IMG/VR virus record: IMGVR_UViG_3300039183_000005
Location: 1 to 64,000 of that record
Length of the DNA: 64,000 bases
Reading direction: 5' to 3' (one strand)
From: a virus
In this document: in pieces, positions 11,901 through 64,000 of the stretch
Layout of the letters: the number at the start of each line of letters is the position of its first letter
Numbering within the stretch: position 1 is the stretch's first letter
The notes under the pieces: model-generated
Database searches by the model: none
What the model was told of the DNA's origin: nothing
What the model saw: only the letters and a program-made list of their open reading frames with translations
Translations under genes and position numbers: made by a program

Positions 11901-12804
11901 AATAAAAGGTAAGAGATTATCTTCTAATCCAAAAGCTTTGAAAATTCTTGCCGATTGTGTGAGGCAGGGTCTTTCTGATAAGAAAATTCAACAACGATTG
12001 GCCCAGGAATGTGGATATAAATGGACTTTAGATACCATTGGTAGGCGCAGAAGGGCTATGGGTGTTGTTAAGCAGTATGGCAAACAAATTGAAACAGATG
12101 TACTAGATGGTCCAATTTTAACAGTTCCACCACCAGGATTGTCAGATGTAGAAAAGGGACATTGGTTTCGAGATCAATTTAAGAAAACACATTTATATAA
12201 AACAATCAAGCGACAATTTGACCCAGAAGAAGTAGATATGTATATAGAAGATTTCGGTTTGTTATGTTGTCAATTTGAGGATATTGTTATAAGTGAATTT
12301 ATGCAAATTGATGATTTTCTTAAGCATCGAATTTTAGTTGATAGACAATTAATTCTATGTCGTTCGTTGCAGAGAGAAATAGCTGACCTACAAATGTGGT
12401 TTGTTTCTCATCCGAAACCAGAAGACGAGGACAAAGAAGCAACGCGATTTCGGATATCTCAACAAAGACAACTTGAAGATAAATATAGACATTTAAAAGC
12501 TATTAACGATCGCTACGATGCGTTAGTTAAAGAAAGACAAAAAATTTACAATAGTTTGGCTGCAACCAGGAAGGACAGACTTGATGAATTGCGCGGCGGA
12601 AAAGAAACATTTATGGAGTTGGTTAGTAGATTGCAGTATTCGCAAGACGAGAGAGAAAAGCAAGGACGTTTTGCTGAATTAACCAAGCTATCCGCCGAAG
12701 ACATAAAAAATGAATTTCGACATCCAGTAGAATTTCCAGATGGTAGCATTGATCCGATTATTATAGATTCAGAAACAGACTTTGCGGAGAACAATGATGA
12801 ATAA
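11893..12804 (+). CDS. HTH plus coiled-coil protein, possible terminase small subunit
   Basis: N-terminal HTH-like segment; helical body; upstream of TerL. Confidence 0.45.
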   Translation: MPKIKGKRLSSNPKALKILADCVRQGLSDKKIQQRLAQECGYKWTLDTIGRRRRAMGVVKQYGKQIETDVLDGPILTVPPPGLSDVEKGHWFRDQFKKTHLYKTIKRQFDPEEVDMYIEDFGLLCCQFEDIVISEFMQIDDFLKHRILVDRQLILCRSLQREIADLQMWFVSHPKPEDEDKEATRFRISQQRQLEDKYRHLKAINDRYDALVKERQKIYNSLAATRKDRLDELRGGKETFMELVSRLQYSQDEREKQGRFAELTKLSAEDIKNEFRHPVEFPDGSIDPIIIDSETDFAENNDE

Positions 12805-13906: not shown

Positions 13907-14150
13907 TTTAGGTAGACGAATCAATGGTATAACCATGCCGATTACATGCAAACGTACTAGATGGTGTCGGAACTGGCCATGTATGTGTGGAAGTGGGTTA
14001 AAGTATAAGAATTGTTGTCTGAAGGAAATACAGTCCTTAACAGAATCGGATGGTAATGCCAATGTTACTAAATTACCAGAAGATATTCAAAAAATGATTG
14101 ATACTCATCGCGAGGCAGAAAAAACTGGAGGCAAGAAAGAAAATGGATAA
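13878..14150 (+). CDS. SEC-C motif protein
   Basis: RNWPCMCGSGLKYKNCC. Confidence 0.85.
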   Translation: MSRTSSEQRSLGRRINGITMPITCKRTRWCRNWPCMCGSGLKYKNCCLKEIQSLTESDGNANVTKLPEDIQKMIDTHREAEKTGGKKENG

Positions 14151-16242
14151 AATAGCGTTGATCACAGGAGTAACTGGCCAAGATGGTAGTTACCTTTCAG
14201 AATTGTTATTGGAAAAAAAATATAAAGTTTATGGAATGATCAGAAGATCATCAGTAGATACTACCGAACGAATTAAACATATTTTAAATCATGAAAATTT
14301 TGAATTGATTGAGGGTGACGTTACTGATGCGTCATGTATGCACCGCTTGATATCTGGTATTAGACCTAATGAGGTTTATAATCTTGCAGCTCAAAGTCAT
14401 GTACAGACATCATTTGATCAGCCTATTCTTACTTATAATGTCAACGCAATTGGGTCGCTTAACATCCTGGAAGCCATTCGTCAAACATCTCCAACTACCA
14501 AATACTATCAAGCTTCAACCTCAGAGTTATTTGGTGATACCACCATATTTCCACAAAATGAAGATACTCCATTTAATCCAGCTTCTCCATATGGTATAGC
14601 GAAATTATCCGCCCATCATTTGACTAGTCTTTACCGTCGTGCCTATGGACTTTTTGCTTGTGCGGGGATTTTGTTTAACCACGAGTCAATTTTGAAAAAT
14701 GCACCAGTTATAATTAAAGATGGAAATGATTTGATAAATATTGTCCCTATTGAGGATATGTTTAGAACTGATAGTCATAAACATGAAGGATTATTAGACA
14801 AATATTGTGGTTTATCGGTTTGGGATGGAGAAAAATGGACAAAAATTTTGGGGGGTCATTGTTATCAGGATTGTAACAAAAGTGTTAAATTGGTTCAAAC
14901 CGTTGGTTCTTGCTATGAAGCAACAGATGATCATGTGACTTTTGATCAGAATAATAAAGAAATAAAGACGAAAGATTTAACGATTGGTCAGTCATTGAAA
15001 AAAATAGAATATCCCGAAACTGAAGATTTTTTAACAGGGAATTTAGATTTAATGCGATTTCTTGGTTTTGTCGTAGCAGAAGGCAGTATTGATAATCGTG
15101 GTCATATTAAGCTGACTGGCTGCGATAAGGAATTATTAGTACGAATGGCCGAATGTGTTTGTGGGCAATTTGGTTGGACATATCGACTAGAAACTCATGG
15201 ACCAGGTGGTTTCGTTACTAGCAAAAAAGATGTTTGGCAACTAAATATTCATAATGATTCAGCTTTTGGACAATGGATATATCAACATATTTACACTATT
15301 CGCTCTAAGGAGAAAAGGGTGCCGACATTCGTTCTTAATGCCAACAAAATGGTTTGTCAAGCATTTTTCGAAGGATATTACGAAGGAGATGGTCGAAAAG
15401 TAGGAAATGAACAATATAAATATAAAGGATGGACCACATCGTCGGCCACTCTTTGTCTTGGATTAATTTTAATCTTACAAAAAATTTCACCAAATCAAAT
15501 ACCTAAAGTAAAATGTGAATATAGGCAGAATAATGGAAAATCTGGAGGTAGATATTATTATTGTAGTTTGACAACCGATGATAAATTTAATACGAAAGGA
15601 AATTGTCACATTAAAAATAAGGCAGAAGTTATAAAGATTTTGAAAACCAAGTCTGATGATGGCTGGTTTTATGATCTTACTACTGAATCTAAAACTTTTG
15701 CGGTTGGTCCCAATTTGATTAAAATTCATAATAGCCCACGTCGTGGAGAAAATTTTGTTACCCGTAAAATTACAAAATATGTTGCTATGTTGAAAAAGTG
15801 GACAGAAGATTATGACAATGGAGGTAGATCGTATCTGCGACCAATTAAAGATGTTGATGTGCCACCATTGAGATTAGGCAATCTTGACGCAAAACGAGAT
15901 TGGAGTCATGCCAGGGATATGGTTAGGGGTATGTGGTTAATGTTGCAACAGTCTGAACCAGACGACTATGTTTTAGGTTCGGGAGAAACACATACAATAA
16001 GAGAATTTTTAGAAATTGCTTTTAATTTAATTAATTTGAATTATAATGATTATGTTGTAGTTGATCCAAAATTTTATCGTCCACTGGATGTAAATTTGTT
16101 GCATTCTAATCCGAGTAAAGCTAGACAAATTTTAGGGTGGAACAGAATCATTAGCTTCAATGAGTTGATAGAGGAAATGGTACAAAGCGATTATGAATTA
16201 CCGAAAAAGGATGTTTCATATGCCAAGACTAGTTCTTCCTAG
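14143..16242 (+). CDS. gmd: GDP-mannose 4,6-dehydratase containing an intein
   Basis: ALITGVTGQDGSYL, YNLAAQSHV, YQASTSELFG, SPYGIAK, LFNHE/SPRRGENFVTRKI, LGNLDAKRDW. Confidence 0.95.
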   Translation: MDKIALITGVTGQDGSYLSELLLEKKYKVYGMIRRSSVDTTERIKHILNHENFELIEGDVTDASCMHRLISGIRPNEVYNLAAQSHVQTSFDQPILTYNVNAIGSLNILEAIRQTSPTTKYYQASTSELFGDTTIFPQNEDTPFNPASPYGIAKLSAHHLTSLYRRAYGLFACAGILFNHESILKNAPVIIKDGNDLINIVPIEDMFRTDSHKHEGLLDKYCGLSVWDGEKWTKILGGHCYQDCNKSVKLVQTVGSCYEATDDHVTFDQNNKEIKTKDLTIGQSLKKIEYPETEDFLTGNLDLMRFLGFVVAEGSIDNRGHIKLTGCDKELLVRMAECVCGQFGWTYRLETHGPGGFVTSKKDVWQLNIHNDSAFGQWIYQHIYTIRSKEKRVPTFVLNANKMVCQAFFEGYYEGDGRKVGNEQYKYKGWTTSSATLCLGLILILQKISPNQIPKVKCEYRQNNGKSGGRYYYCSLTTDDKFNTKGNCHIKNKAEVIKILKTKSDDGWFYDLTTESKTFAVGPNLIKIHNSPRRGENFVTRKITKYVAMLKKWTEDYDNGGRSYLRPIKDVDVPPLRLGNLDAKRDWSHARDMVRGMWLMLQQSEPDDYVLGSGETHTIREFLEIAFNLINLNYNDYVVVDPKFYRPLDVNLLHSNPSKARQILGWNRIISFNELIEEMVQSDYELPKKDVSYAKTSSS
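14686..15732 (+). mobile_element. intein with LAGLIDADG endonuclease (349 aa) in gmd
   Basis: Interrupts NHE|SPRRG; begins SILKNAP; block B ATDDH; FLGFVVAEG and FFEGYYEGDG; block F FYDLTT; ends IHN/S. Confidence 0.92.
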
Positions 16243-21487: not shown

Positions 21488-22174
21488 ATGGTGAAAGCAC
21501 CGTCTTTTGAATTTGATCGCTGTGACACGTATATGTATTTTACACCAGATACGTTGCCTGATAGACCAAACATTGTAGAAGTCGGTTCAATACATGGTGC
21601 TCATGGTATTAAATTATGTAAAAAATTCAATAATAATTTAACCATGATAGCGTATGAAGCTGGACAGGAAAATTACAAGAGTCTATGTCGTGGTCTGTCT
21701 CCTTTCTCTATTTCACATTCTGGCGGCTGTTGTCAACCTCGCATTGTTGCTCATAACGCTGCGGTTACGGGGCGCGACGGAGAGGTAGAATTTTTTGAGT
21801 TTAAAGAAATATCTTCCAATAGTATATTTCCACGACACGTAAACGAAGGTAGAAATTTAAAATGTGTGAATTTGATTAAATCAGTTAGTCTAGAAACAGT
21901 TTTAAAAGATAATCATTTAGATAGATTAGATTTGCTTTTTCTTAATTGTGAAGGTGCCGAACTTGGAATATTAAATGAAGTGTTACTTAAACCATTATTG
22001 CGAAATAGATTAGGTCAATTATGTGTTTCTTTTCATGGTAACCGCATTTATCCACAAGAAAAAACTGATGAAATGGTACAAATGATGTCAGAATTTTTCT
22101 GGGTGGTCGAGGAGCAAAATGATTGGCCTTGTCACCTGTTTGTAAACAAAGGTCTTGAATTAGTTAGGGGGTAG
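21488..22174 (+). CDS. FkbM-family SAM-dependent methyltransferase
   Basis: IVEVGSIHG...AYEA; HNAAV; LDLLFLNCEGAELGIL. Confidence 0.8.
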   Translation: MVKAPSFEFDRCDTYMYFTPDTLPDRPNIVEVGSIHGAHGIKLCKKFNNNLTMIAYEAGQENYKSLCRGLSPFSISHSGGCCQPRIVAHNAAVTGRDGEVEFFEFKEISSNSIFPRHVNEGRNLKCVNLIKSVSLETVLKDNHLDRLDLLFLNCEGAELGILNEVLLKPLLRNRLGQLCVSFHGNRIYPQEKTDEMVQMMSEFFWVVEEQNDWPCHLFVNKGLELVRG

Positions 22175-24065: not shown

Positions 24066-24545
24066 ATGGCTTTGAAACCAGATCGTGAATACAATGAAGT
24101 TACTGACATTACCAACTTTTGGACTACAGTTGCGGCTGAGAAAGGTGGTTGTGCCGGTGTCGTTACGCAGGGTTCGGGTGCAGCTATCGGGCAAAATATT
24201 ACCGATGAACCGAACGTTGTTGGTTATGTAGCAAACCCGTCAGGAGTAATTGCTAAGGGTATTCTGCTTCAAACGGTTAGTGCGGCTATGAGTGCTACTA
24301 GAGATTTTGTTAATTATGAAAATCAGGAAATTCGTCCTGGTGATAAGTGTACTCTAGTCAAAAAGGGTTTTGTGGTTACAGATATGATTCCAGCAGGTAT
24401 TACACCAACTGCTGGAGCTGCTGCATATTTGGCTGCAAGTGGTTACATTAGTTCAACGCAGGCCACTGGTGCTCCGCAAATTGGTCGTTTTGAAACGACT
24501 AAAGATGCGGCTGGCTTTGCAAGGGTTTCTATTGACATAACTTAA
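24066..24545 (+). CDS. head decoration/cement protein
   Basis: Small Gly/Ala-rich beta protein between scaffold and MCP. Confidence 0.65.
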   Translation: MALKPDREYNEVTDITNFWTTVAAEKGGCAGVVTQGSGAAIGQNITDEPNVVGYVANPSGVIAKGILLQTVSAAMSATRDFVNYENQEIRPGDKCTLVKKGFVVTDMIPAGITPTAGAAAYLAASGYISSTQATGAPQIGRFETTKDAAGFARVSIDIT

Positions 24546-24559: not shown

Positions 24560-25585
24560 ATGAAGCGTAATATTGTAAAACCAACTCCAGAGCAAATTGA
24601 ACTTTTACGGCGCACTGGTTCCACCAATCAGGCTGAATCTTTAGCCGCCATGCATTCTCTTGCTCAGGCTCTACAAGTTCCTCTGCGATCTGCACTACTC
24701 AATGGTGATATTCTTGGCGGAATCTTCACACCTGAAGTTCTAGACCCAAGCGCAACTGCTGAGTATCCACTGGATTTTTATCAGACGGCACAAGAAAACG
24801 ATTATGTTGCCTATGTAATTCCGAGTGAAGGTGCTTTGCCGCAGCGTACCATCTGTGGTGATGCAATAACCATCAGCACATATGATGTTGGTAATGCCAT
24901 TGACTGGCCAATCAAATACGCAAGAACGGCACGATGGAATATTGTTGCACGTGCCATGGAGGTATTAGAGGCTGGTTTTGTGAAGAAGATGAATACGGAT
25001 GGTTGGCGTGTTATTATCGCGGCAGGTGCAGGACGTACTGATTATGCCGGTGGGGCACCACTGGTATACGATAGTGCGGCTACTGCCGGTCAATTTACTA
25101 AGCGACTTGTTTCTCTGATGAAGACAACCATGACTCGTCTTGCTGGTGGCAATAGCACATCAACAAATCATGGTCGCCTGACTGATTTATTTATCAGTCC
25201 AGAAGCACTAGAGGATATTCGCGAATGGGATAATGATGAAGTTGACGATTTTACTCGCCGGGAAATCTTTACTGCTGGAGACGGCGGTGGTCCTATGGCA
25301 AGTATTTATGGTGTCAATCTTCATACGCTAGACGAACTAGGTGTGGGTCAGGAATTCCAGACTTATTTTGCAACACTGGGTGTCAGTATGGGTACGGGCG
25401 ATGAGGAAATCGCTATCGGCCTAGACTTGTCTCACGGTGATTCGTTCGTGATGCCAGTTAAGCAAGAATTAATGATCTACGAAGATGATGCACTATTCCG
25501 TAGACGTAGGGCTGGGTTCTGGGGAACCCAAGAGCATGGATTTGCGGCTTTAGACGGACGTAGAGTTTTGTTATCGAGCTTTTAG
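24560..25585 (+). CDS. major capsid protein
   Basis: 341 aa, canonical position, strong SD, followed by terminator. Confidence 0.8.
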   Translation: MKRNIVKPTPEQIELLRRTGSTNQAESLAAMHSLAQALQVPLRSALLNGDILGGIFTPEVLDPSATAEYPLDFYQTAQENDYVAYVIPSEGALPQRTICGDAITISTYDVGNAIDWPIKYARTARWNIVARAMEVLEAGFVKKMNTDGWRVIIAAGAGRTDYAGGAPLVYDSAATAGQFTKRLVSLMKTTMTRLAGGNSTSTNHGRLTDLFISPEALEDIREWDNDEVDDFTRREIFTAGDGGGPMASIYGVNLHTLDELGVGQEFQTYFATLGVSMGTGDEEIAIGLDLSHGDSFVMPVKQELMIYEDDALFRRRRAGFWGTQEHGFAALDGRRVLLSSF

Positions 25586-25712: not shown

Positions 25713-26960
25713 ATGGCGAAGAAGAAAATTGATATAGATAAGGCAATTCGACTTTACCGAGACGAAAGGAAGTCAACACCCGAAATATCAAAAATAATCG
25801 GATGTGCTGTACAAACATTGATTACTCGTCTTAGAGAAGCTGGAGTCAAAATGCGATCATCGGGTGAATCACATGCAAAAATAGATTTTGATATCATACG
25901 ACACGAATATGAAGACTTAAAAATGTCTACCGAACAAATAGCAAAAAAACATAAAATGAAGTCTTCATCTATATGGCAACGTCTTACCAGAAATGGTGTT
26001 GCAACAAGAAATTATCAAGAGGCTGCTAATATTAACATTATAATTCCAACCGAAGAATGTCAGATTATTTGTGAACGTTATAAGGCGAATCAACACGAAA
26101 GTTGCGCCGATATTGCTGCGGACTACGATGTCAATAAAAGTACAATTGCAAATATTTTAAAGAAAAACGGTATTATTCCAGAACGCAGCGGTGCTCGCAT
26201 TAAATCATACAAGGGTGGTATTACCAAACTCCATACCAGAATTCGTAATTGCGAAAGAGCTAAGTTTTGGCAACGAGCGTGTATGGAAAGAGATGATTAT
26301 AAGTGTAGAGTTACTGGCGAAAATGGACAATTACAAATTCATCATTATCCGAAAAGTTTTTCAAAAGTATTTAATGAGTTTTTAGCCCAATATCCCGATT
26401 TAAATCCGATTAAAGATTGTGATAAACTTTTTCAATTATCTCAAAGCTATGAACCATTTTGGGATACTGATAATGGTATGACCGTAACAGTAGAAACGCA
26501 TAAAAAACTGCATATGCATAATGGTATCAAAGATAGCGAACTGATAGCTTTATACGACCAGGGCTGGTCGTGCCAACGTATTGCGAAACATTTTGGAAAG
26601 TCTCCATCATTTGTTCAGACCAGATTTGCGGCAATCGGGCAAACCCGCAGAAATGCTGGATTTTATAATAAATTGCGCTCTGAAATTAGTAGCGAAATCC
26701 AGGCTGGTGTTCTTGAAGCCTATGTCCGTGGTGAGACAACAAGGGAAATATGCAATAGATATGGTATAGCGACAAGCACACTGTACAAGATTTTGCGGAA
26801 TAATAATGTTGTACCTGGTAATAGAAAAAAGTCTGTAGAAAGTAAAGCCAGACAAGATAGTGATCGCGTAAAACAATTATATTCTATCGGTGTTACCGTA
26901 CTTGAACTTTCAAGGATGTATTGTGTCAGCGATACTACAATTAGAAATATTCTAAAATAA
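25713..26960 (+). CDS. HNH-like endonuclease flanked by multiple HTH repeats
   Basis: RDDYKCRVTG...QIHH...NGMTVTVETHKKLH core; repeated LY..G.S..EIA..G.S..TI...L; own ACGTATAA motif at 25683. Confidence 0.7.
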   Translation: MAKKKIDIDKAIRLYRDERKSTPEISKIIGCAVQTLITRLREAGVKMRSSGESHAKIDFDIIRHEYEDLKMSTEQIAKKHKMKSSSIWQRLTRNGVATRNYQEAANINIIIPTEECQIICERYKANQHESCADIAADYDVNKSTIANILKKNGIIPERSGARIKSYKGGITKLHTRIRNCERAKFWQRACMERDDYKCRVTGENGQLQIHHYPKSFSKVFNEFLAQYPDLNPIKDCDKLFQLSQSYEPFWDTDNGMTVTVETHKKLHMHNGIKDSELIALYDQGWSCQRIAKHFGKSPSFVQTRFAAIGQTRRNAGFYNKLRSEISSEIQAGVLEAYVRGETTREICNRYGIATSTLYKILRNNNVVPGNRKKSVESKARQDSDRVKQLYSIGVTVLELSRMYCVSDTTIRNILK

Positions 26961-27117: not shown

Positions 27118-27495
27118 ATGTTCCTATCTGATGCACAAATAACAGAATTATACTCTCTGGGGAAAAGTTGTGCCGATATAGCACATATTGGGGAATGTAG
27201 TGAAACGACAATATATAATAGACTCAAGTCTTTAGGAGTAACGATGCGAAATCGGTCGGAAGCTAATCAAATTTTTCCAGACTGTATTTTTATATTACTT
27301 TATAATTTGGGTCTTTCTGCGTCCCAAATTGGAACATTGTTGGGTTTAGATTCGTCAACAGTTATTAAACGATTACATAAACTGAACTTCCCTTTGCGGT
27401 CTGGCGCTTTAGCTCGTAATATTAGATACACAAATGATGAATTTAAGACGCACTTTATGACTCCTAAAATTTTAGACATATTGGGGGATATGTAG
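27118..27495 (+). CDS. tandem HTH-repeat protein
   Basis: Two LYxLGxSxxxI...STTV/I repeats; GTGTATAA at 27071-27078. Confidence 0.7.
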   Translation: MFLSDAQITELYSLGKSCADIAHIGECSETTIYNRLKSLGVTMRNRSEANQIFPDCIFILLYNLGLSASQIGTLLGLDSSTVIKRLHKLNFPLRSGALARNIRYTNDEFKTHFMTPKILDILGDM

Positions 27496-50901: not shown

Positions 50902-51444
50902 ATGACATTAGTAGCTGATACATGGGGAGCAAATCGAAATCCAACTCCAAAATCTTTCAAAATGTACAAGACTCTTACAGCTACGGCTGTATCTGGGTCT
51001 GCCGTGACCGACACAGAAACAATTTTTAATAAAAACTGTCCTTTTCCAGTGAAGGTTGTTGGATTTGAGGTTCAGGCAGTGACATTAACTGCTAGTGATT
51101 TCAGTGGTAGCGGATCGGCCATGACTGTTGCGCTGCAAACCTCTGATGAAGTTGATACATCTCCTGGTGCGCCAACGGCCATAAGCTGGGATACTGCGGT
51201 AACTGTCGATTGTTCTGGCATTGCATCTGATACAGACAAGAGACTATTTGCAGCTCCATCTAATGCTGGTGATCGAGTGGATGTCGGTTTGGATCAGACA
51301 TATGTTGCAGTTCCGAAGGGTGGTTCAATGAGGGCAACCCTATCAGCTCAGGCCAAAGATGCCGTTTCTGTATCTAGTGCTGTAGAATTGCTGGCAATTG
51401 TAGAATGTATACCGACAGAAGCCAACGATCAACTTAGATTTTAG
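50902..51444 (+). CDS. probable virion structural protein
   Basis: Ser/Thr/Ala-rich beta protein; own promoter, strong SD and terminator. Confidence 0.55.
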   Translation: MTLVADTWGANRNPTPKSFKMYKTLTATAVSGSAVTDTETIFNKNCPFPVKVVGFEVQAVTLTASDFSGSGSAMTVALQTSDEVDTSPGAPTAISWDTAVTVDCSGIASDTDKRLFAAPSNAGDRVDVGLDQTYVAVPKGGSMRATLSAQAKDAVSVSSAVELLAIVECIPTEANDQLRF

Positions 51445-53968: not shown

Positions 53969-56900
53969 GTGGCATTTGTACTTGACGTTAATCTTAGAAT
54001 TCAAGATATCCTTGGTCTGCAAAAGGTTGAGGCTGCTCTTGGCAAATTAACAAGTTCCACACAGGTGGGAGCTGTTGTTGGTGGTGCTGGAGCTACAACA
54101 AGTGCAATTAAAACACAGGCTGCTGCTGCAACTGCCCAGGCTACTGCTGTCAACAAAGTAACAACTGCCACTAATAAAATGAATGTTGCCCAGAATAAAG
54201 CTGCAACAAGTACGCGAAAAGCTACTTCTGGAATGCAACTTAGCGCTAAAGCTTCTGAAAATTTTGGCAATGCTGTGTATCTCGCCGGTCGTCGATATGC
54301 TGCATTTGTAACTGCTACCGCTGCTCCACTAGCAATTGTCGCAGGTTTGGGAAAAGCCACAGCTTCGGTAATCGAATTTGATAGTGCCATACTTAAATTG
54401 CGACAAATTATGGGCCAAACAGATCAGCAAATTAGTAGTACCAGAGACACTATTCTTGATTTAGCCGCCAGCACAGGTACGTCTGCTAGTGAGATTGCTC
54501 GTGTTGGTAAGGTTTTGGCTCAGGCAGGGCAAAGAGGTGATGTGCTTACCGAGTCACTAACAGCTCTTTCTAAAGTTCCATTAACGCCGTCTTTTGAAAC
54601 TATTGATGCTGCTATTGAAGGTACCATCGCCGCTCTAAATCAGTTCAATTCCGAAGGTTTAACTACTACTAGGGTGCTGGATGTTATGACAGCCCTATCT
54701 AATAAATTTGCTGCATCTTCAGAAGATATTGCTAAAGGTATAGCTCGTGGTGGTGCTGCATTTGAAGCTATTGGTGGCACATTTGAGGAATTTGCTTCAG
54801 TATTTACAACTATTCGACAGGCAACGCGAGAAAGCGCCGAAACTGTTGGTACATTTATGAAGACCATTTCTTCTCGTCTGGCTGATCCTAAGATTGTAAA
54901 TTTCCTTGAAGGTAAAGGAATTCGTATTTCCGAAGCCATTGAAGCTGGTAATCCAGTAGAAGCAATAAAGCGAATTGCCGCTGCATTAAGAGAAACTGCA
55001 AGTATTCAGGATAGAATTGAAATAGGTACTAAGCTTGGCGGACGACGCCAGATTTCTCGTTTACTTGCTTTGATTAGTAACATTGATGTGTTAGATGAAA
55101 CTTTAAAAACTGCTGCCACATCAAGCGGAGAATTCGGGAAAATAGCCGAAGAAGGTTTAAAGGGATTGCAGGCACAATTAAATATTATGGTTCAAGAATG
55201 GAATAAATTAATACAATCATTAGCGGCTCCAGTATTTGTTCCATTTATTCAAATGGCTACTCAAGCAGGAAAAGCCTTGGCGTATATGGCCGATTTTGCC
55301 AAACCTATTATTCCAGCCTTAACATATATTGCAGGGTTTACTGCGGCATTCAAGTTATTAGCAGTATCTATTACCAATGCAGGAAAAGCACTTGCATTTA
55401 TGGGAACCGTTGGAAGAACCGTTGGTGGTGGACTTGCTGCTACCGCAACTGCTGCCCAAGGTTTAGCTGCTGGTGGTTTAGCCGGAACTACAGCAAGAGA
55501 ACGGGTTCAAAGACGTTTGGCTGGTGGAGTTGGCCTTTCTGCTGAACAAGCTGCTGCTGCTGGCGCTGCTGGTGGTAGATTCGCTGGTGGAGCGAAAGCT
55601 GCTGTTACTTCACAATTGGGCCAATTAGCTGTAGCTGCCGGTATTGCTTTAGCTGCCAGTAAGTTTTCTGAAGCTGCTGAGAAAGCTGGTAGTTCTGCTG
55701 GTATATTCGCTTCTGAAACAGCAAAAGCTGCCGCTGTTATTGGTATTGCTATCTCTGCTTTGTCTGGCAAAAGTATCACCGGGGCTTTAGCTTCACTCGG
55801 CCCATTCGGTGGTGCTGTTGCTGGAGTTACTTTGGCATTGGGTGCAATGACATATGCTGCCAATAAAGCTGCTGATATCGATATGCAAAAAGTTATTGAT
55901 GAAATGGTTAATAAAATTAAAAACATTAAAACAGATGACCTAGAAATAAAAACACCAGAACAATTACAGCAACAAATTGGCGATCTTGGAACTGATGCTA
56001 TAGAAGGAATTCAAGAAGCTGCAAATAAATGGGAGGATGACTGGTATGACGTTTTTGCCAATATTCCAAATAGATTAAAAAATCTATTTACTGGTCAGGG
56101 TAACTTAACAATTAATGATGCACAAGCTCAAGAAATAATTGAACGTATTGTTGGTGCTAATCCAGAACTACTTAATAAAATTTTGCAATCTGCGGTAGAA
56201 CAATTTGGCGCTGGTGGACTAGAAACAGGTATCGATCAATTATTAGTAGAAGAATTAGGTGGCAATGCTGAAGTCATTGCCCGTGTTCGTCAGGCTATGA
56301 TTAAACAGCTTGGTGGAATGGAAAAAATTGCTACTAATATTGAAAAAATTAAGCTAGACACAGAAGTGAGTAGGCTTGGAAATGCTATTGCTAAAGCGTC
56401 AAAAGATTTTGAAACCCTACATGTTCCATCGCAACTTAGTTTTGAACTTGGAATGTTGAGTGATGCAGTTGGTAATACAGCGAGGGCTATTGAAACTAAT
56501 GTAACATTATTTGACAAATTAAGTCAAGTAATTGGTCAAGATATTGGTGTTTCTAAGCCGGGAACAGAATTTTCTAGGGCGGCAGTTGAAGAACTTGTTC
56601 GTACTGGAGGTATCGGTGACATATTAGATTTGAGCAATTTTGAAGGTTTAGATGAATTTACTACCGACATGGCAAGAGTCGGAGATGCACTAGATGATTT
56701 TATGAAATCTATTGTTAAAAGTAAGGCAAATGCTGATTCATTGCGATCGTTATTGAGTGATCCAAAGGTTGATCCATTTGATATTATGAGTGATTATATC
56801 GATAAATTTATGGATGAATATCCAGATAAAATTCCACCTGAAGCTGAAGCTGCCTTTAAAGCTGCTGCTACTGGTCTCGGACAACAATTAAAAAATATGA

Positions 56901-59011
56901 TTACTGATTCTGCCGGTGTGTTGCCCAGTACAGAAGAAATACAAAAAGCTATGGATTCTGTTCTTGGAAAACAACGTCCATTTTATGACGCAGCTATAGA
57001 TGTTTATCAAACATGGTTAAATGCTCAAATGCAACAATTAAATTTAAAATTATCTGGTGAAGAAATATCTGCACAAGTCGATGTTAGTACCGCAGAACTT
57101 AGTGATACTATTATAACAAGTCTACGAAATGCTTTAAAAAATGTTGGTATTGATCTTCGATTACCATTATTCGAAGAAGGTCTCCAGAATGCTAATGATG
57201 TCATGGTTGATTTAGCTCAAAATGGTGATTTGGTTGGACAAGTTTTATTAAAATATGAAAGTAGTTATCGTAAACATGCTGAATTGCAACGACAAATAGC
57301 TGAAGCTCAGCAAACCGGTGAAGGAGCAAGTATTGGTTTGTTGGAAGCTTCAAATAAGGCATCAATTGAAGTGCTTAATTTACAAGTAGTTTTAAGTCAA
57401 TTGGCTAAAATAGCACAACGGGCTCCACAGGCATTAGCCGCACAGCAAGAAGAACAAAGAAAACTTCCGTATGTTTTTGATGAAAAAGCTGCAACAAAAT
57501 TTACAGAACAACTTGGTAAAAGTAGTGAGAAAATGATTGAGCTTATTAATCGACAACGACAATTGATTGAAGCACAAACTGCAATTGATGTAGCTGAAGT
57601 ATTCAAAAAACCTGCCGATATTTTTGCTGAAGCTCTAAGAGAAAGTGCCACTGCTGTTCGTGCATTTACCTCTGCCCTGACAACCCAAGACTTACAAAGG
57701 GGACTTGGTGTTCCTAGTGCTGGCACAACGCCGGAAGGGCGTGTATACACAGCACGCCAATATGTTCCAGAAGCAAGACTGCCAAAAAAGCAAGTGATGG
57801 ACCAGAAATTTTTGCAATCTGCTTTATTCGGTGGTAATGTGGAGAATGTTATGGAAGCACTACTCCAGGGTGCTGCGACGACAGCCGAAAGTAAAGTTTT
57901 CAGTCAATTACTTCGAGGACAACAAGATGAAGCTGCGTCCAATAAAGTACTTGCTGAAAGTTTTAGAGAATTTAAGGGATTTATTTATGATATTCCAAAG
58001 GCTATTCAAGAAAGTGGACTAGACCCGGCAGAAGTGGCACATGCTGCGGCTAAAGTTTTGAGGGAGCAGGCTACTCAATCTGGAGCAATTGAAGTAGAAC
58101 ACATTGGCGCAATTCAAAGAACCATGGGTGATTTAGCTAATAGTTTAAAAACATTAATCGAACGTCCAGAAGTAGCCAGAGAACCACAGCAAATCATAGA
58201 GCAATTACCTAGCAATATTCAGGATTTATTACGGAATTTAAGTCAACCGACAGGTCGTGCGACAGAATTTGAAACGGCGCCAAGAACATTCGAAGATATT
58301 TCGTCATCGGCGGCAGACATTCAGCGAGCTGCATCTGAAACACATATGGCCTCAGAAGCTACCATACGATCAACTGAAGAAATGCGTACAGCTTCTACCG
58401 ATATACGTACTGGCGGCACTGATTTACTCACTGCTAGTCAAGGTATTAGTGAGGCGATTGGACAACTACAAGCATTTGTTGATATACAGCGAGAAACATT
58501 AACAAGACAACAAGAAGTAGCTGGCGAAAGTACTGATACTGGTAGTAATACTGAAGCAATTATGGCTACAACGGAAGCGATAAATGCTCTTGGTGAACGT
58601 GTTGATTCGGTCGCGAAAGCTGTCGAAATTCAAACCCAACAAGCAGTTGAATTGGCTACTACAGAAACAATGAAACCACTCGAAGTGGAAGGCTTGGTTG
58701 AAAATACCAAGGCATTAGATGCTAGTAGTGATGCAAATTCAAAAACTCGGGAGGAAATGACTACTTTAAGTAAGGGGATGTCTGATATTGCAAATTCAAT
58801 GAAAAATGGTATTGGAATTGACATTGAAACTATGAGCGAAGTCAAGGTTGATGTAGAAAGTATTGGTGCAGCAGCTAAAGAATTTACATCTGAATTTGAA
58901 GAGGTTGCGCATAAGGTCGCCAAGGAAGAAATTCGCATTATGTTGCAACAACTAGCTCGTGAAGCTGGTAATTCCGAAGCCGCATCAACATTTGAAAGTG
59001 CGATAACGTAA
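53969..59011 (+). CDS. tail tape measure protein
   Basis: 1680 aa Ala-rich helical protein; TP901-type core (EFDSAI...SNKFAASSEDIA...ETVGTFMKTI). Confidence 0.9.
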   Translation: MAFVLDVNLRIQDILGLQKVEAALGKLTSSTQVGAVVGGAGATTSAIKTQAAAATAQATAVNKVTTATNKMNVAQNKAATSTRKATSGMQLSAKASENFGNAVYLAGRRYAAFVTATAAPLAIVAGLGKATASVIEFDSAILKLRQIMGQTDQQISSTRDTILDLAASTGTSASEIARVGKVLAQAGQRGDVLTESLTALSKVPLTPSFETIDAAIEGTIAALNQFNSEGLTTTRVLDVMTALSNKFAASSEDIAKGIARGGAAFEAIGGTFEEFASVFTTIRQATRESAETVGTFMKTISSRLADPKIVNFLEGKGIRISEAIEAGNPVEAIKRIAAALRETASIQDRIEIGTKLGGRRQISRLLALISNIDVLDETLKTAATSSGEFGKIAEEGLKGLQAQLNIMVQEWNKLIQSLAAPVFVPFIQMATQAGKALAYMADFAKPIIPALTYIAGFTAAFKLLAVSITNAGKALAFMGTVGRTVGGGLAATATAAQGLAAGGLAGTTARERVQRRLAGGVGLSAEQAAAAGAAGGRFAGGAKAAVTSQLGQLAVAAGIALAASKFSEAAEKAGSSAGIFASETAKAAAVIGIAISALSGKSITGALASLGPFGGAVAGVTLALGAMTYAANKAADIDMQKVIDEMVNKIKNIKTDDLEIKTPEQLQQQIGDLGTDAIEGIQEAANKWEDDWYDVFANIPNRLKNLFTGQGNLTINDAQAQEIIERIVGANPELLNKILQSAVEQFGAGGLETGIDQLLVEELGGNAEVIARVRQAMIKQLGGMEKIATNIEKIKLDTEVSRLGNAIAKASKDFETLHVPSQLSFELGMLSDAVGNTARAIETNVTLFDKLSQVIGQDIGVSKPGTEFSRAAVEELVRTGGIGDILDLSNFEGLDEFTTDMARVGDALDDFMKSIVKSKANADSLRSLLSDPKVDPFDIMSDYIDKFMDEYPDKIPPEAEAAFKAAATGLGQQLKNMITDSAGVLPSTEEIQKAMDSVLGKQRPFYDAAIDVYQTWLNAQMQQLNLKLSGEEISAQVDVSTAELSDTIITSLRNALKNVGIDLRLPLFEEGLQNANDVMVDLAQNGDLVGQVLLKYESSYRKHAELQRQIAEAQQTGEGASIGLLEASNKASIEVLNLQVVLSQLAKIAQRAPQALAAQQEEQRKLPYVFDEKAATKFTEQLGKSSEKMIELINRQRQLIEAQTAIDVAEVFKKPADIFAEALRESATAVRAFTSALTTQDLQRGLGVPSAGTTPEGRVYTARQYVPEARLPKKQVMDQKFLQSALFGGNVENVMEALLQGAATTAESKVFSQLLRGQQDEAASNKVLAESFREFKGFIYDIPKAIQESGLDPAEVAHAAAKVLREQATQSGAIEVEHIGAIQRTMGDLANSLKTLIERPEVAREPQQIIEQLPSNIQDLLRNLSQPTGRATEFETAPRTFEDISSSAADIQRAASETHMASEATIRSTEEMRTASTDIRTGGTDLLTASQGISEAIGQLQAFVDIQRETLTRQQEVAGESTDTGSNTEAIMATTEAINALGERVDSVAKAVEIQTQQAVELATTETMKPLEVEGLVENTKALDASSDANSKTREEMTTLSKGMSDIANSMKNGIGIDIETMSEVKVDVESIGAAAKEFTSEFEEVAHKVAKEEIRIMLQQLAREAGNSEAASTFESAIT

Positions 59012-59021: not shown

Positions 59022-62000
59022 ATGGCCCAATGTTATTATACAGAAAATTATCAAACTTGGAGCCCATCCGGTAAGCAAGTATGGGAAGAAAAGGACTTAT
59101 CTCCATGGCTTCCGAGTACTGGAGATATAACAGCAGAAATTGTTATATTAAATAGCAATACGATAGTGGGAGTTTTTTCCGGTGGGATAAGAGCCGCTGG
59201 TTCTTCGTTAGATAGAAAATTTAATATATACAGGGTTCCATTTTATGATGGATACAATCCATTAACATTGCACGTTCAAGTTTCTGGCGGTAAAATTGAG
59301 TGCTATGCCTCAAGTGGTATAGATTTCTGTTTGTTGGGATATTGGACTGGAACTCGATATGTAGAAAAAAATGATGATTTTGCGCCTGCATCTGGTGGTG
59401 CTTGGATCAATACAAATCTTAGTACCTTTGGTGTTCCAAGCGGTGCTATAGCAGAAATTGCTCTTGGAGATGCTAATGGTAATAATAACTTCGGCGTTCG
59501 ATCTGTCGGAAATGATAATCTTCGTTACGTTAAAATGAATGCTGGAGATACCTTGCACGGTAAATATAATTACTGGACATCCCTGGTGCAAACCAGCGGC
59601 AACAATGCGACAATTCAATATTATTCACAAACCTATACGACTGGACGAAAATTATTTGTTTGTGGTTACTGGGATACTCCACCTGGGGATTATACTGATA
59701 TATTTGATAGAGATGCAGCTAATCCAATAAATGATAGTACATGGGACGTTATCGATGTAGCTAATGTACAATCTGGATATGTAGCATCATTCGGCATCAT
59801 GACCGAAGAACCACTTCATAGTCGTGTTTTAGGTATTCGTCAATCTGGAAGCATTATTGATAGAAAAAATAATATACGTTTTTCTACTGCCACAAAAATC
59901 AATATGGTATATTGTTCGCACGTAAATGTTAATCCATACATTGAAGCTTACTCAGAAGATGCTTCTGGAAGTAATGATGATTTTACTTTATTGGGTTATT
60001 GGAACAATTTTTCATCATATTTCGAATCGATAAATGCTAGCGGCAATTTATATATATGCGGACATGATATAGCTCCTGTTTTGAGTGGCAGTAAATTATA
60101 TTACACAAATTTGGTTGAAAAGCAAATTGTCGCATATGATATTGATAATTTTGAAACAGACATTATTGTCGCAAGTGGATTAAATGCCCCATATGGAATA
60201 GTGTCTGACAGCATTAGGGATCATTTATACTGGGTTGATAAAAGTGACGGAACAGTTAATAGATGTACTACAAGTGGAGATAATATCTGTATAATTAGTT
60301 CTGGATTTTCACTTCCGTCACATATAGCTTTCGACTATTTAAATAGCAATTTATATATTGTTGGTAATAGTGATGATTATATATCTAGAATTAATATTGA
60401 TGGCTCAAATAATGTTCTTATTCTTGATAGTTCTGACGGAATTTCAGCTCCTAGTAGAATTCAATTATTGCCATATTCTGGTATAATGTTTTGGACAGAA
60501 ACAGATACCACTAATGGTAAAATCAAAAAAGCTAATTTGGATGGATCAGAAATACAAACTATAGTAAGTGGTTTATATAATCCAATAGGAATAGCGTTAG
60601 ATAAAACTAACAATAAAATTTATTGGACACACACACCAACAACTGGAGACCCATTTAATGGACAAATACAAAGATCAAATTTTGATGGATCAAACATAGA
60701 AACAATTTCTGATGGATTTGGATTTTTACTTGGTCTTGTTATAGATCAATTCTCAGAATTTGCTTATGTTAATATTTATGCCGGTGCTGAAAATGATGTA
60801 ATAGCAAAAGTTAATATGTCCGACGGAACAAAAGAATATATCATCATGGTCGATGGCCATATCAACGGAATGGCTATTTACAATCCGTCTCCAGGAATTA
60901 AAACATTTACACATGGACATGACACCATATTATCTTCTAGTGATTTATTCATATCAGGAAAAGATGATAACTTAAATAATTGCAATCTTTTTATACCTGG
61001 ACACGATATAGTATCAATTTCCAGTGATTTATTTATTGATGGCGAATGTCCATGTAATGATAGTTGCGACCTATTTACATCCGCCATGCATATATGTTCA
61101 AATAATTTGAACCTTTTTGTAAAAACTTGGAATTTTGATGGAAATTGTCACTACACCGAAGATATTCATAGTTGGCATATTGAAAATAGTGGGTCGTGGG
61201 AAGTCCATGATTTAAATTCTCATATTGTTGTGCCATCTGGAGATACTCCCAGCATAGTAGCAGAAATTTTGATTTCTAATATTGGTGATATTCCATGGTC
61301 TGGTGGTGTCCGTACATTAAATTCTTCGCTAGACAGAAAAATAGGTATTTTTCAACAGGATAATATTGAATGGTCTGGTGCCAATTATGGTGCTACGATG
61401 CACGTACAACTTTCTAATGATCATAAGTTAGAATGTTACGCGCAAAACTGTGATGATATTAAATTTATTTTATTAGGATATTGGGTTGGTCCAGAATATG
61501 TCGAATTAGCCGAAAGATTCAATTTTGTTGGTGCTGCTGATTGGGCGCAAAAATCACTAGATACCTATGGAGTTGCTAGTGGTGCTATAGCCGAATTAGT
61601 TGCTGGATGTTATTATTCCTCTGAATATCGCATGGGTGCTAGACAAATAGGTTCTGATATAGACCGATTCATATATGCTGGCCGTGGACAATGGACTGGA
61701 TTGCCAGGAAGTTCACGAGGTTATTGGTCAACGTTCGTTAATACAAGCGGCAATAATGCTGTTATAGAGATCAAATCTGATTTTCCGACTTTAGTTACCG
61801 GCGGTATATATTGGATGGAAAATTTCGTTGCTGGATATTGGTCTAATCCACCTGGTGAATATACTGAACAATATACTATTGATGATGCATCTATAGGAAT
61901 AGATAGTACTTGGACAAATGTTAGTGGAACAGCACCATCAGATTCCGTAGCACAATATTATGTATCTAACAAAAAATTAACAAAACAAACACTTGGTATC

Positions 62001-64000
62001 AGATCATTAGCCAATGAGCTTGATCGTAAATTTAGTCTTCCAAGATCACCAACTAGTAAAACATCAAATTTTAGTTCGCATGTCAATGTATCGTCAGACG
62101 TAAAAGTATATGCTCAATATGGTGCCGACAATAATGAAAATATAAATTTATTAGGTTATTGGAATAATTTTAATTCATGGACACCTCTGACTTCAGATAG
62201 TATATCACTTTTTATGTCTGGGATTCCAGCTTTTATAAATACTAGTGGCGACAAAGGCGGGTTATATCCATCTGGTGTTTCATTATATATCTATGGTATT
62301 CAATCTGATAATATTGATTTGTTTACCAACGGTGCTGATAGCAGTGATGCTTCTGGAAGTTTGTTTATACATGGAATATTTAATTATGCTACTAGCCAAG
62401 AATATTCTTTGTCTTATCCATCTGGTCTTCAATGTTATACTGTCGGTAGTGGCATAATTTCAGAAAGTGGTCAATTTCCACTTGTTATTGACGGATTTAA
62501 TATACCTGAAGTATCCGGTGATCTTTTCATTAACGGTTATGATCTCTCTTCTGTGTCTGGCGATTTATTCATAAAAGCTCCTGAGCCAGCAGCATCTTCA
62601 TTAAGTCTTTTCATCTATAATCCAGTTGATCTAGGACCAGGTTTAATTAGAGAAGCTGATGCTGTATTTTATTTGAGATATTATCATGATGGCCCAGATT
62701 CAGCAGGTGATATACAGGAATTTGTAAATAACCAAACATGGTATATTCCAGAAACCTTATTTCAACACAGTCCGTTTATTGGCGTATCCGGTAAAGTGGT
62801 TGAAAATGTTGGATCATCAGAAATAATTGAACCATTTGCTCCGACTTTCGGAGATGGCACTTATCCGCAATTTAATGATCTTGGCGGACCTAATTATCGT
62901 GAAGCACTAGACACTGACTACCGCACCCCTGGAGGTGGATGGCAGTCCACTAAACTTGGTTATTCTGAAAGCACCAAATATCAACAAAATACTTGTGGCC
63001 CAATTGATGATTATCAATATCCCGGTTCTAGTAGTTTTACTACAGTTTTTTGGATGTCCGGTGCTCATACATCGGGGAATGTTGCTGAAGTAGGTTGGTT
63101 CAGAAAAGATAATGTTGAAGATTTAGATATTGCCCTAGCAGTTCACACTGTTGGTATTCGTATTGAAAGTGAAAGTGGTCTCACTGTCATAACTAATATG
63201 CGTGATGTGCCATATGAACAACCCAGCGGAGGTGGTTTATGGTGGGGCGGTACCACTCACTACGGAACTCCAACTGGAACAGACTGGACATGGCGCAGTG
63301 CAAATGAATACTGGACGTGGACAGAAGAATGGCCAACTGTACATATAGAACATAATCCAATTACTTTTGTAGCCTTACATGCGGATTTTATAGCTAGTGG
63401 TGTCGATGGTGGTCATCCCAATCACATGAAGGTATATCTGAGTCTGGATGGTCAACCATGGACGTATATTGGTTCTGGATTAACCGGTCCACCAGCAAGC
63501 TCTCTATATAGCTACAGTGATCCAAGAAATAGAAAAGCTGAAAATTGTGTTGGCGTTAGACAGCAAGGTATTAATGTCAGTGGCGGAATTATTCCTGCGG
63601 AGATTGGTGGCGTTAAACAGGGTAGTATTATTCTGTCAGAAAATGTTCTGTGGACTGATGCAGATAAATTTACCAACGGTGAATTAAGTGCTTTATACAG
63701 TGTTGTTGATCAATATTATCGGCCACTTAATGAGTATAGACCTACTATCGTTCCGCCGTCAACATATATTAAAAGAACGTTCAGTGATTTTATATATAGT
63801 CCAGCAGATATCAGTGTTGGATATAATCCAGGAGAAATTTGTTCTGGCATATTGGTAACGATTGAAGTTGGCCTTGGAGCCTACGGAGATGCTGCATCAG
63901 CTTATCTTATTGAAGAAAATATCCCATCTGGCGTATATGTCCGTAATATTAGTCGTTCTAGTGGTACATCTGCATATTACAATCAGGGATCGCGTCCTGC
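59022..64000 (+). CDS. giant tail/fibre-like protein, 3' truncated by window end (absent from ORF track)
   Basis: ATG 59022; translated by hand at start, middle and end in one frame; duplicated triple-domain modules ending GYW, YWTD propeller, LF(I)xG repeats. Confidence 0.8.
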   Translation, partial: MAQCYYTENYQTWSPSGKQVWEEKDLSPWLPSTGDITAEIVILNSNTIVGVFSGGIRAAGSSLDRKFNIYRVPFYDGYNPLTLHVQVSGGKIECYASSGIDFCLLGYWTGTRYVEKNDDFAPASGGAWINTNLSTFGVPSGAIAEIALGDANGNNNFGVRSVGNDNLRYVKMNAGDTLHGKYNYWTSLVQTSGNNATIQYYSQTYTTGRKLFVCGYWDTPPGDYTDIFDRDAANPINDSTWDVIDVANVQSGYVASFGIMTEEPLHSRVLGIRQSGSIIDRKNNIRFSTATKINMVYCSHVNVNPYIEAYSEDASGSNDDFTLLGYWNNFSSYFESINASGNLYICGHDIAPVLSGSKLYYTNLVEKQIVAYDIDNFETDIIVASGLNAPYGIVSDSIRDHLYWVDKSDGTVNRCTTSGDNICIISSGFSLPSHIAFDYLNSNLYIVGNSDDYISRINIDGSNNVLILDSSDGISAPSRIQLLPYSGIMFWTETDTTNGKIKKANLDGSEIQTIVSGLYNPIGIALDKTNNKIYWTHTPTTGDPFNGQIQRSNFDGSNIETISDGFGFLLGLVIDQFSEFAYVNIYAGAENDVIAKVNMSDGTKEYIIMVDGHINGMAIYNPSPGIKTFTHGHDTILSSSDLFISGKDDNLNNCNLFIPGHDIVSISSDLFIDGECPCNDSCDLFTSAMHICSNNLNLFVKTWNFDGNCHYTEDIHSWHIENSGSWEVHDLNSHIVVPSGDTPSIVAEILISNIGDIPWSGGVRTLNSSLDRKIGIFQQDNIEWSGANYGATMHVQLSNDHKLECYAQNCDDIKFILLGYWVGPEYVELAERFNFVGAADWAQKSLDTYGVASGAIAELVAGCYYSSEYRMGARQIGSDIDRFIYAGRGQWTGLPGSSRGYWSTFVNTSGNNAVIEIKSDFPTLVTGGIYWMENFVAGYWSNPPGEYTEQYTIDDASIGIDSTWTNVSGTAPSDSVAQYYVSNKKLTKQTLGIRSLANELDRKFSLPRSPTSKTSNFSSHVNVSSDVKVYAQYGADNNENINLLGYWNNFNSWTPLTSDSISLFMSGIPAFINTSGDKGGLYPSGVSLYIYGIQSDNIDLFTNGADSSDASGSLFIHGIFNYATSQEYSLSYPSGLQCYTVGSGIISESGQFPLVIDGFNIPEVSGDLFINGYDLSSVSGDLFIKAPEPAASSLSLFIYNPVDLGPGLIREADAVFYLRYYHDGPDSAGDIQEFVNNQTWYIPETLFQHSPFIGVSGKVVENVGSSEIIEPFAPTFGDGTYPQFNDLGGPNYREALDTDYRTPGGGWQSTKLGYSESTKYQQNTCGPIDDYQYPGSSSFTTVFWMSGAHTSGNVAEVGWFRKDNVEDLDIALAVHTVGIRIESESGLTVITNMRDVPYEQPSGGGLWWGGTTHYGTPTGTDWTWRSANEYWTWTEEWPTVHIEHNPITFVALHADFIASGVDGGHPNHMKVYLSLDGQPWTYIGSGLTGPPASSLYSYSDPRNRKAENCVGVRQQGINVSGGIIPAEIGGVKQGSIILSENVLWTDADKFTNGELSALYSVVDQYYRPLNEYRPTIVPPSTYIKRTFSDFIYSPADISVGYNPGEICSGILVTIEVGLGAYGDAASAYLIEENIPSGVYVRNISRSSGTSAYYNQGSRP

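Follow-up and report, generated by a model that had tools for sequence, protein, structure and literature searches.

An excess of Ser-Gly dipeptides in the fibres, the tail tube and a candidate cement protein of an uncultured phage family, independent of glycosyltransferase content

The stretch of DNA analyzed here (the window) comprises positions 1–64,000 of a 168,332-base phage record in IMG/VR (IMGVR_UViG_3300039183_000005) and encodes several virion proteins in which the dipeptide Ser-Gly (SG) is strongly over-represented. This excess is real, arises at the level of the proteins and is confined to particular virion modules, namely the giant fibres, the tail tube, the candidate cement protein and a few small tail proteins. 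It is specific to Ser and to the order of the two residues, occupies a fixed place in a fibre repeat, falls in loops of the tube, and shows no tie to the transferase content of the genome. On balance, it probably reflects a habit of this lineage of building loops in beta-rich structures.

The expected number of SG was computed from each protein's own Ser and Gly content, with 2000 shuffles. The fibre of 1526 amino acids (aa) (27495–32075, + strand) contains 43 SG versus 14.9 expected (z 8.0). The giant fibre that follows the tape measure gene (59022–64000, + strand) continues past the window to genome position 65672 according to whole-genome calling of open reading frames (ORFs), and its full product of 2216 aa contains 66 SG versus 22.9 (z 10.0), 45 of them encoded inside the window. 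The same ORF calling revealed a third SG-rich fibre at genome positions 72308–75802 (22 versus 7.5, z 5.7). SG ranks first among dipeptides by z in all three giant fibres, and the observed count was reached in 0 of 2000 shuffles. The observed/expected ratio (O/E) of GS in the fibres is about 1, NG and DG are at expectation (1.0–1.6), and TG is depleted (0.3–0.7); genome-wide, SG is the most over-represented dipeptide (O/E 1.54). The first-pass annotation, which drew attention to the bias, had counted by hand, and its counts turned out to be exact: 43 SG, 15 GS and 3 TG in 27495–32075, 45 SG in the part of the 59022 fibre within the window, 12 in the tube, 6, 4, 3 and 3 in the 35255, 50902, 24066 and 32088 proteins, and 6, 2, 1 and 0 in the tape measure (1680 aa), TerL (723 aa), LigA (626 aa) and the capsid protein (341 aa), respectively. 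Its contention that the bias is real, directional (SG and not GS), specific to Ser and not a mere consequence of composition is borne out by the depletion of TG and by the shuffles.

The excess extends over nearly all fibre segments (O/E 2.0–4.0), the exceptions being the YWTD propeller of the 1526-aa fibre (1.4) and residues 601–720 of the 59022 fibre (1.1), and thus it is not only an artefact of repeats. That it could be a by-product of composition, repeats or gene-calling, devoid of biological meaning, is almost certainly wrong. It is true that the fibres are rich in Ser and Gly, that about one third of the SG in the 1526-aa fibre lies within repeats, and that the counts summed over orthologues from 14 genomes, which are used below, include inherited sites repeatedly and are therefore not independent. 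However, composition was corrected for and no shuffle reaches the observed counts, GS remains at expectation, the segments outside the repeats also show O/E of 2.0–4.0, and of 45 independent public homologues of the second repeat region of the 1526-aa fibre (median O/E 2.48) 30 exceed an O/E of 2. The shuffles, the ratios for individual segments and the public homologues together refute this explanation.

The SG dipeptides are written with both serine codon boxes (68 TCN, 63 AGY), and TCA is avoided before Gly throughout the genome, through a codon-pair effect that is just as strong in the non-fibre genes. These two observations rule out a DNA word as the source of the excess and place its cause at the protein level. 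The codon-pair bias itself is a property of the whole genome, in which A-ending codons make up 18.5% before Gly versus 35% elsewhere, and T-ending codons 54% versus 37%. Avoidance of the deamidation-prone Asn-Gly was also considered as a cause and rejected, since neither NG nor DG is depleted.

Comparison of the orthologue groups delimits the set of proteins concerned. Enrichment was found in the tube (106 SG observed versus 48.3 expected), the cement protein (46 versus 14.7), P216 (86 versus 39.9), P310 (64 versus 29.2) and the 50902 protein (31 versus 9.8), whereas none of the capsid protein, the portal, TerL, the tape measure and three large tail proteins exceeds expectation in the summed counts. 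The major capsid protein (24560–25585, + strand; no SG versus 1.7 expected, and 20 versus 24.3 over 14 orthologues) and the tape measure protein (53969–59011, + strand; identified by matches to PHROG tape-measure families with E down to 2e-25; 6 SG versus 8.8) provide a negative contrast. The neighbouring tail proteins 65684, 67426 and 69834 are not enriched (O/E 0.33–0.83), and the remaining orthologue groups pool to an O/E of 0.97. Thus, of the proposal that SG is heavily used in exposed virion proteins and rare in internal ones, the first part holds for a subset of virion proteins, while the other proteins are at expectation and not poor in SG. As a control, 25 tail and fibre proteins of phages T4, lambda and T5 were analyzed, which pool to 143 SG versus 117.8 (1.21), none of them with p<0.01 singly; a fainter form of the trend is seen in lambda J (12 versus 6.5, with TG 1 versus 8.1) and T4 gp34 (12 versus 7.1). 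The excess in the present phage is well outside the range of this small control set.

The 1526-aa fibre consists of an N-terminal part, a first region of shaft repeats, a propeller, a second region of shaft repeats and a C-terminal part, with O/E of SG of 3.4, 2.9, 1.4, 2.4 and 3.2, respectively. Shaft repeats A (29355–30074, + strand; residues 621–860) are built of ~14-residue units that share the core [DN]-L-[FY]-[IV]-x-G; in some units SG directly precedes this core. Shaft repeats B (30795–31754, + strand; residues 1101–1420), whose public homologues were mentioned above, resemble repeats A as well as the repeat fibres found in relatives. Between them lies a six-bladed beta-propeller of the YWTD type (LDL-receptor class B; 30075–30794, + strand; residues 861–1100; PF00058, E=1.4e-22; SG 2 versus 1.4), which matches chains of LRP2, LRP4 and LRP6 (best LRP2, E=6e-117). 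In public homologues of the shaft this place is taken by RCC1, LamG or DUF5050 modules, so these domains look like exchangeable receptor-binding heads. The 59022 fibre also has a propeller of this animal-type YWTD domain, located at ~60078–60629, and a duplicated N-terminal domain (matches to PF00058 and DUF5050; segment O/E 1.1–4.0). The 115-aa protein encoded just downstream of the 1526-aa fibre (32088–32435, + strand; SG 3 versus 1.6) is 45% identical to fibre residues 1427–1493, and the homology search with fibre residues 1–620 found one relative only.

About one third of the SG in the 1526-aa fibre occupies a fixed loop position of the 14-residue shaft repeat, and the remainder is spread over nearly all segments. 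In this genome SG adjoins the core in 14 of 44 shaft units, and the Gly found at this place of the repeat is preceded by Ser in 14 of 14 cases here and in 27 of 27 and 13 of 14 cases elsewhere. The arrangement is most regular in a relative, G015, whose fibre of 1649 aa contains 91 SG with 46 of 90 intervals between them exactly 14 residues long; its unit comprises a hydrophobic strand ending in D-L-F-hydrophobic-x-G, four variable residues and then S-G (e.g. T-A-S-G-S-I-D-L-F-V-N-G-H-D). The replacements seen at SG sites are mostly TG, SS, DG, SA and NG, i.e. a set of small polar turn dipeptides. A homotrimer prediction for shaft repeats A returned a score of 0.00 with an uncertain fold and speaks neither for nor against any of the explanations discussed here. 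The shaft bears some likeness to fibres of the adenovirus type, in which the shaft is a 15-residue triple beta-spiral repeat: as far as the phage sequence allows comparison, in both, the period is short, hydrophobic residues alternate along the strand, turns contain Gly, and the exposed loop varies. In a distant relative (L180:11370–16976), the post-capsid fibre is collagen-like, with 274 QG in 1868 aa arranged in triplets G-N-Q, G-D-Q and G-F-Q, with SG depleted (11 versus 29) and GS enriched (49).

Around 651 SG sites from 23 SG-rich proteins, position -1 is enriched in Ala, Pro, Met and Val and positions +3/+4 in Leu, Met and Phe, while Lys, Arg, Asp, Glu and Asn are depleted, Lys strongly so within four residues. 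The acidic residues fall to 0.4 (Asp) and 0.6 (Glu) of the background at position -1 and to 0.4 (Asp) and 0.3 (Glu) at position +3. The sequon of eukaryotic proteoglycan xylosyltransferases is Ser-Gly flanked by acidic residues. Judging from their composition, the flanks of the phage SG are those of a short loop between strands and not of an acidic proteoglycan sequon. The analogy with proteoglycans drawn in the first-pass annotation is thus not supported, all the more so as no gene with a GT14 Branch domain (PF02485) was found in the genome.

The 372-aa protein encoded at 36268–37386 (+ strand; SG 12 versus 5.0) was predicted to be a tail tube protein of the double-domain type known from T5 pb6 and P74-26. 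An AlphaFold2 model calculated from only 9 close orthologues was discarded (pLDDT 27.6), but the calculation repeated with 141 sequences yielded a confident model (pLDDT 94, pTM 0.91). A Foldseek search of the Protein Data Bank (PDB) with this model returned 8xan, 7qg9, 9iny and 8ed0 as the top matches (E 1e-12 to 5e-9) and also 5ngj, and the fold resembles the double-domain tubes of SH-Ab15497, T5/DT57C and P74-26, while a sequence search of the PDB gave no match. The fold match confirms that the label of tail tube, assigned earlier from the sequence, is right. In the model, 9 of the 12 SG are located in coil and 3 at strand edges, several of them in a low-confidence loop (residues 21–40) and in an insertion (205–225) that is missing from the deep homologues. 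Among 131 deep homologues (34–52% identity), S140 belongs to SG in 104 and to TG in 11, and S130 to SG in 66 and to TG in 25; of the other sites only S195 is partly conserved. The tube family as a whole, which has 3715 relatives in public data, shows an O/E of 1.71 whatever the source genome. T5 pb6, despite the shared fused double-domain fold, has no SG excess (3 versus 2.6) and is only ~10% identical. Two homologues of the tube, P0020 and P0027 (84–85% identity), are assigned at NCBI to bins of Heimdallarchaeota and Pacearchaeota, probably through errors in binning, because the sigma factor, DnaE, LigA and deformylase of the phage point to a bacterial host.

The other enriched proteins are smaller. 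The candidate head decoration (cement) protein (24066–24545, + strand) shows a weak match to Phage_cement (25.6 bits, below the cut-off of 27) and has 3 SG versus 0.9, the summed excess given above being taken over 14 orthologues. P310, a conserved 310-aa protein encoded upstream of the tube (35255–36187, + strand), has 6 SG versus 2.1, with the sum taken over 13 orthologues, and 3 of its 6 sites are conserved across 9 genomes. The 180-aa protein encoded upstream of the tape-measure block (50902–51444, + strand) has 4 SG versus 1.1, with the sum taken over 7 orthologues, in which GS is equally high (30).

According to the reading that we favour, SG would mark the edges of strands and the short loops in structures that are rich in beta-strands and in part repetitive, with Ser as a small hydrogen-bonding residue followed by Gly as a residue that allows a tight turn, a structural reason that we infer. 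In the fibre shaft it would take one fixed place in the loop of the 14-residue unit, and in the tube it would fall for the most part in loops specific to the lineage, in addition to two or three positions conserved in deep homologues. Expansion of the repeats would have multiplied the motif, and relatives would have passed it on by exchanging fibre modules, which would explain why SG-rich and SG-poor fibres alternate among close relatives. The fixed register in the repeat, the strand-loop-strand context, the coil placement and the two deeply conserved sites in the tube all speak for such a structural habit, as do the substitutions by Thr, Asp, Asn or Ala, the faint trend in lambda J and the independence from transferases described below; in lambda J and T4 gp34 the weak trend occurs without any virion glycosylation system.

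Several observations weigh against it. If SG were a motif for turns, Asn-Gly and Asp-Gly would be expected to be favoured as well, but both are at expectation, and the fibres of T4, lambda and T5 pool to an O/E of only 1.21. The same 14-residue repeat in three relatives (G003, G002 and G001) has T-Q, N-Q, N-N or N-I in place of SG, which means that the fold does not require it. Diverged fibres keep the number of SG while the positions shift (e.g. 28 and 31 SG, with 8 aligned), and such a steady density with changing positions looks like selection on density and not on fixed structural sites. In the tube, the Gly of SG is less conserved than other Gly (0.29 versus 0.57). Finally, the structural role of SG in the fibre is a putative one. 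The lack of co-enrichment of NG and DG, the repeat without SG, the maintained density and the low conservation of Gly are what a modification sequon would predict.

The corresponding alternative, that the SG serines in exposed loops are acceptors for cytoplasmic O-glycosylation by transferases of the phage, which would lay a dense coat on shafts, tube and cement, seems unlikely to us, but it can draw on the genes of this genome. The + strand of the window carries genes for a glycosyltransferase (GT), GDP-mannose 4,6-dehydratase (Gmd), TerL, the portal, an FkbM-family methyltransferase, the scaffold, the cement protein, the capsid protein and the 1526-aa fibre. The assignments of the three sugar-related genes made from the sequence alone, and their location in the packaging/head block, were confirmed. 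GT12782 (12782–13906, + strand) lies just upstream of Gmd and the terminase, and the C-terminal half of its product is a Glyco_trans_1_2 domain of the GT-B clan (PF13524, E=1.3e-13), with no match in NCBIfam or in a sequence search of the PDB. Gmd (14098–16242, + strand) matches PF16363 in two stretches (E=3.8e-114) and LAGLIDADG_3 between them, as it is split by a 346-aa LAGLIDADG intein (~14689–15726) that is absent from the Gmd of nearly all relatives; its exteins (residues 1–197 and 544–714) align end to end with intein-less orthologues of 332–389 aa. Inteins occur also in TerL homologues of 1089–1122 aa in some relatives and in a GT1 gene at genome positions 84537–87437. The FkbM-family gene (21488–22174, + strand; TIGR01444, 46.1 bits versus the cut-off of 37.7; PF05050 borderline) is located between the portal and the scaffold and is present in some relatives only. 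Further sugar-related genes lie at 79–98 kb of the genome, on the opposite strand and flanked by the two parts of DnaE. They comprise a GT2 gene, three GT1/GT4 genes, of which one contains an intein, and a Caps_synth transferase, along with genes for a TylF methyltransferase, a nucleotidylyltransferase and a cupin, an aldolase-like gene and one with a weak match to sulfotransferases.

Thus, the genome encodes at least five transferases beyond GT12782 (at 79–92 kb; matches to PF00535, PF00534, PF13692 and Caps_synth), and this total of at least 6, together with Gmd, the sugar-1-phosphate nucleotidylyltransferase and the TylF and FkbM methyltransferases, as well as the position of GT12782 and Gmd in the late structural block on the same strand, would fit glycosylation of the virion. 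So would the specificity of the excess for Ser, for the S-then-G order and for a subset of outward-facing virion proteins, the behaviour of SG as a unit within the shaft repeat, the density maintained through positional turnover, and the location of many tube SG in variable loops. Lipid-linked or DNA targets are not indicated, since neither of the two families of lipid-carrier priming transferases searched for (Bac_transf and WecA-type) nor a ThyA-family hydroxymethylase was found in the genome. As for the sugar, the earlier suggestion of a 6-deoxyhexose was an inference from Gmd, and a BLAST search of this genome (E 1e-3) revealed no second short-chain dehydrogenase/reductase (SDR) paralogue that could reduce the Gmd product, whereas two relatives, G011 and G013, have one; the role of the 4-reductase or epimerase-reductase could be played by a host enzyme. 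The genes at genome positions 95328–98642 (L109 and L110), which bring together the sugar-1-phosphate nucleotidylyltransferase (a weak HddC-like match), a HAD phosphatase-like ORF, the cupin and the aldolase-like gene, lead us to the speculation that together with a Gmd-like dehydratase they might make GDP-heptose or 6-deoxyheptose rather than a 6-deoxyhexose.

The comparison of genomes argues against a link between these genes and SG. Thirteen relatives, gathered with the capsid protein, were taken whole or as far as their records reach. Homologues of GT12782 are present in 8 of 8 near-complete close relatives, the fibres of which have SG O/E of 1.4–3.6. At first sight the excess appeared to go with GT12782, as the sister lineages G003 and G002 (capsid proteins 87% identical) lack this gene and have SG-poor shaft fibres (7 versus 7.3 and 14 versus 11.7), although G003, which still has three GT1 genes and Gmd, retains SG in the tube, P216 and P310 (7 versus 2.8, 6 versus 2.6 and 5 versus 2.4). 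This correlation was abandoned in the light of two other groups. G011 (95% complete) and G013 possess homologues of GT12782, GT2, GT1a, GT1b, the intein-type GT1, Gmd and u78421, i.e. most of the glycan genes, yet SG in their giant fibres is at expectation (12 versus 10.9, 6 versus 4.4, 24 versus 21.7, 12 versus 11.4 and 22 versus 21.5). No other Ser/Thr dipeptide is enriched in these fibres, so the idea of an alternative sequon in the SG-poor relatives was rejected. Conversely, L152–L154, the nearest relatives of G003 and G002 (capsid proteins 69–75% identical), have SG-rich fibres (13 versus 3.9, 24 versus 10.7 and 26 versus 12.0) on records 17–28% complete, which have neither GT nor Gmd in their customary position before TerL and contain no member of the GT12782 family. 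G012, L163 and L184, clade-mates of G011 and G013, are SG-rich. In both clades, therefore, close relatives differ in whether their fibres are rich or poor in SG, and SG richness is a property of individual, exchangeable fibre modules and not of clades or of transferase content. The expected co-occurrence of the bias with the GT genes was therefore not found among the relatives, and the proposal that SG is an acceptor sequon gained no support. Both the core transferases and a modest SG excess in the tube, cement protein, P216 and P310 are found throughout the family, so this agreement is uninformative; relatives of GT12782, sought in other phage families, were found in this phage family only, so there is no independent replicate either.

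A presence/absence profile identified 21 genes that track the SG-rich genomes, with no transferase but several genes of the Ubl-E1-E2-JAB neighbourhood among them; it is, however, confounded by phylogeny. All near-complete relatives that are SG-rich possess genes for ThiF/E1, JAB, an E2-like protein, an AAA ATPase, DUF3150 and DUF1257 (genome positions 133091–143391, L216), which the SG-poor G003, G011 and G013 lack. Together with the strong depletion of Lys within four residues of SG, this pattern could suggest that SG was selected on exposed loops for some other reason, such as conjugation of a ubiquitin-like protein (Ubl), phosphorylation, chemical stability or interaction with the host. 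We consider this improbable. The profile rests on two independent SG-poor clades, confounded by distance, with G012 and G015 not scorable, and the association of the Ubl genes with SG is probably due to phylogenetic confounding; moreover, ubiquitin-like systems normally target Lys, and the variant invoking stability fails because Asn-Gly and Asp-Gly are not depleted.

Known systems offer partial precedents for glycosylation of such proteins. The cytoplasmic enzymes AAH and TibC, which act on AIDA-I and TibA, O-glycosylate many serines, but not threonines, of a repetitive beta-structured adhesin, and one mapped site in TibA lies in N-S-G-G (PMC4358343). The phage fibre, with SG at a fixed loop place of its repeat and TG depleted, might be compared with the substrates of these bacterial autotransporter heptosyltransferases (BAHTs). 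The phage differs in the length of the repeat (~14 and not 19 residues), in the candidate substrate, which is a fibre with only a candidate glycan, and in the absence of a GT9-type gene: no Glyco_transf_9 (PF01075) was found in the 168-kb genome with a search in which the controls matched. Mycobacteriophages provide a precedent for virion glycosylation by phage-encoded transferases, which according to Freeman et al. 2023, as cited in PMC12619734, modify the capsid and tail tube, with glycans at the C-termini of the subunits. This phage also encodes glycosyltransferases; unlike in the mycobacteriophages, however, its capsid protein has no SG, its tube does not end in a tail rich in Ser/Thr, the proposed sites are scattered, and the acceptor motif does not co-vary with transferases, as seen from G011, G013 and the profile. 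SdgA and SdgB, GT-B enzymes of the GT4 family, glycosylate Ser of the Ser-Asp dipeptide repeats in staphylococcal adhesins (PMC3794999, PMC8561734); their motif forms a contiguous low-complexity run, and the phage GT shows only generic GT4 similarity to them (22.4 and 14.8 bits versus the family cut-off of 800). The difference from the proteoglycan sequon, with phage flanks depleted in Asp and Glu and enriched in Ala, Pro and Val, was described above. Several observations weigh against glycosylation of SG: G011 and G013 combine most of the glycan genes with fibres lacking any Ser/Thr dipeptide excess, the incomplete records L152–L154 combine SG-rich fibres with the lack of GT and Gmd at the usual place, the profile contains no transferase, neither the capsid protein nor three large tail proteins show enrichment, and the genome has no GT9 or GT14 enzyme. 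Nothing ties the SG serines to the sugar-adding genes, so this alternative is not supported, and nothing refutes it either; the glycan genes probably have a different or a broader role.

Further downstream on the + strand of the window lie the conserved pair 35255/36268, a block of small genes with the NAD-dependent DNA ligase, the 1680-aa tape measure and the giant fibre from 59022. The block between the tube and the tape measure contains, besides the DNA ligase (37996–39876), an RNA ligase (42216–43205; PF09414 and an OB-fold domain). Two genes among the structural ones may represent mobile or homing elements: a 415-aa protein (25713–26960) that combines several helix-turn-helix units of the HTH_23 type with an ANT-like segment, and an HNH endonuclease (34305–35264) whose N-terminus is Myb-like. 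Searches with tblastn, using the capsid protein and the fibre as queries against 50,697 phage records, revealed no match, and the PHROGs gave no match for the fibres, tube or transferases.

The SG excess is robust and common to a very abundant family of uncultured sediment and marine phages. No paper describing it was found in a literature search aimed at virion glycosylation and not at this bias. Should it serve only to build loops, it still defines a shaft repeat that is new, and fibre modules could be recognised by it. If, as we regard as possible though rather doubtful, soluble transferases of the phage O-glycosylate the Ser of SG at the fixed loop position of each shaft unit and in loops of the tube and cement protein, a tailed phage would for the first time be seen to wear a dense glycan coat directed by a sequon: a bottle-brush in which each fibre chain has tens of sites here and ~90 in the most SG-rich relative, its amount tuned in each phage by SG-rich or SG-poor fibre modules. 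Such modification would give the many unexplained transferase genes of the lineage a target, and the coat would bear on host recognition, resistance to proteases and the persistence of these phages in sediment.

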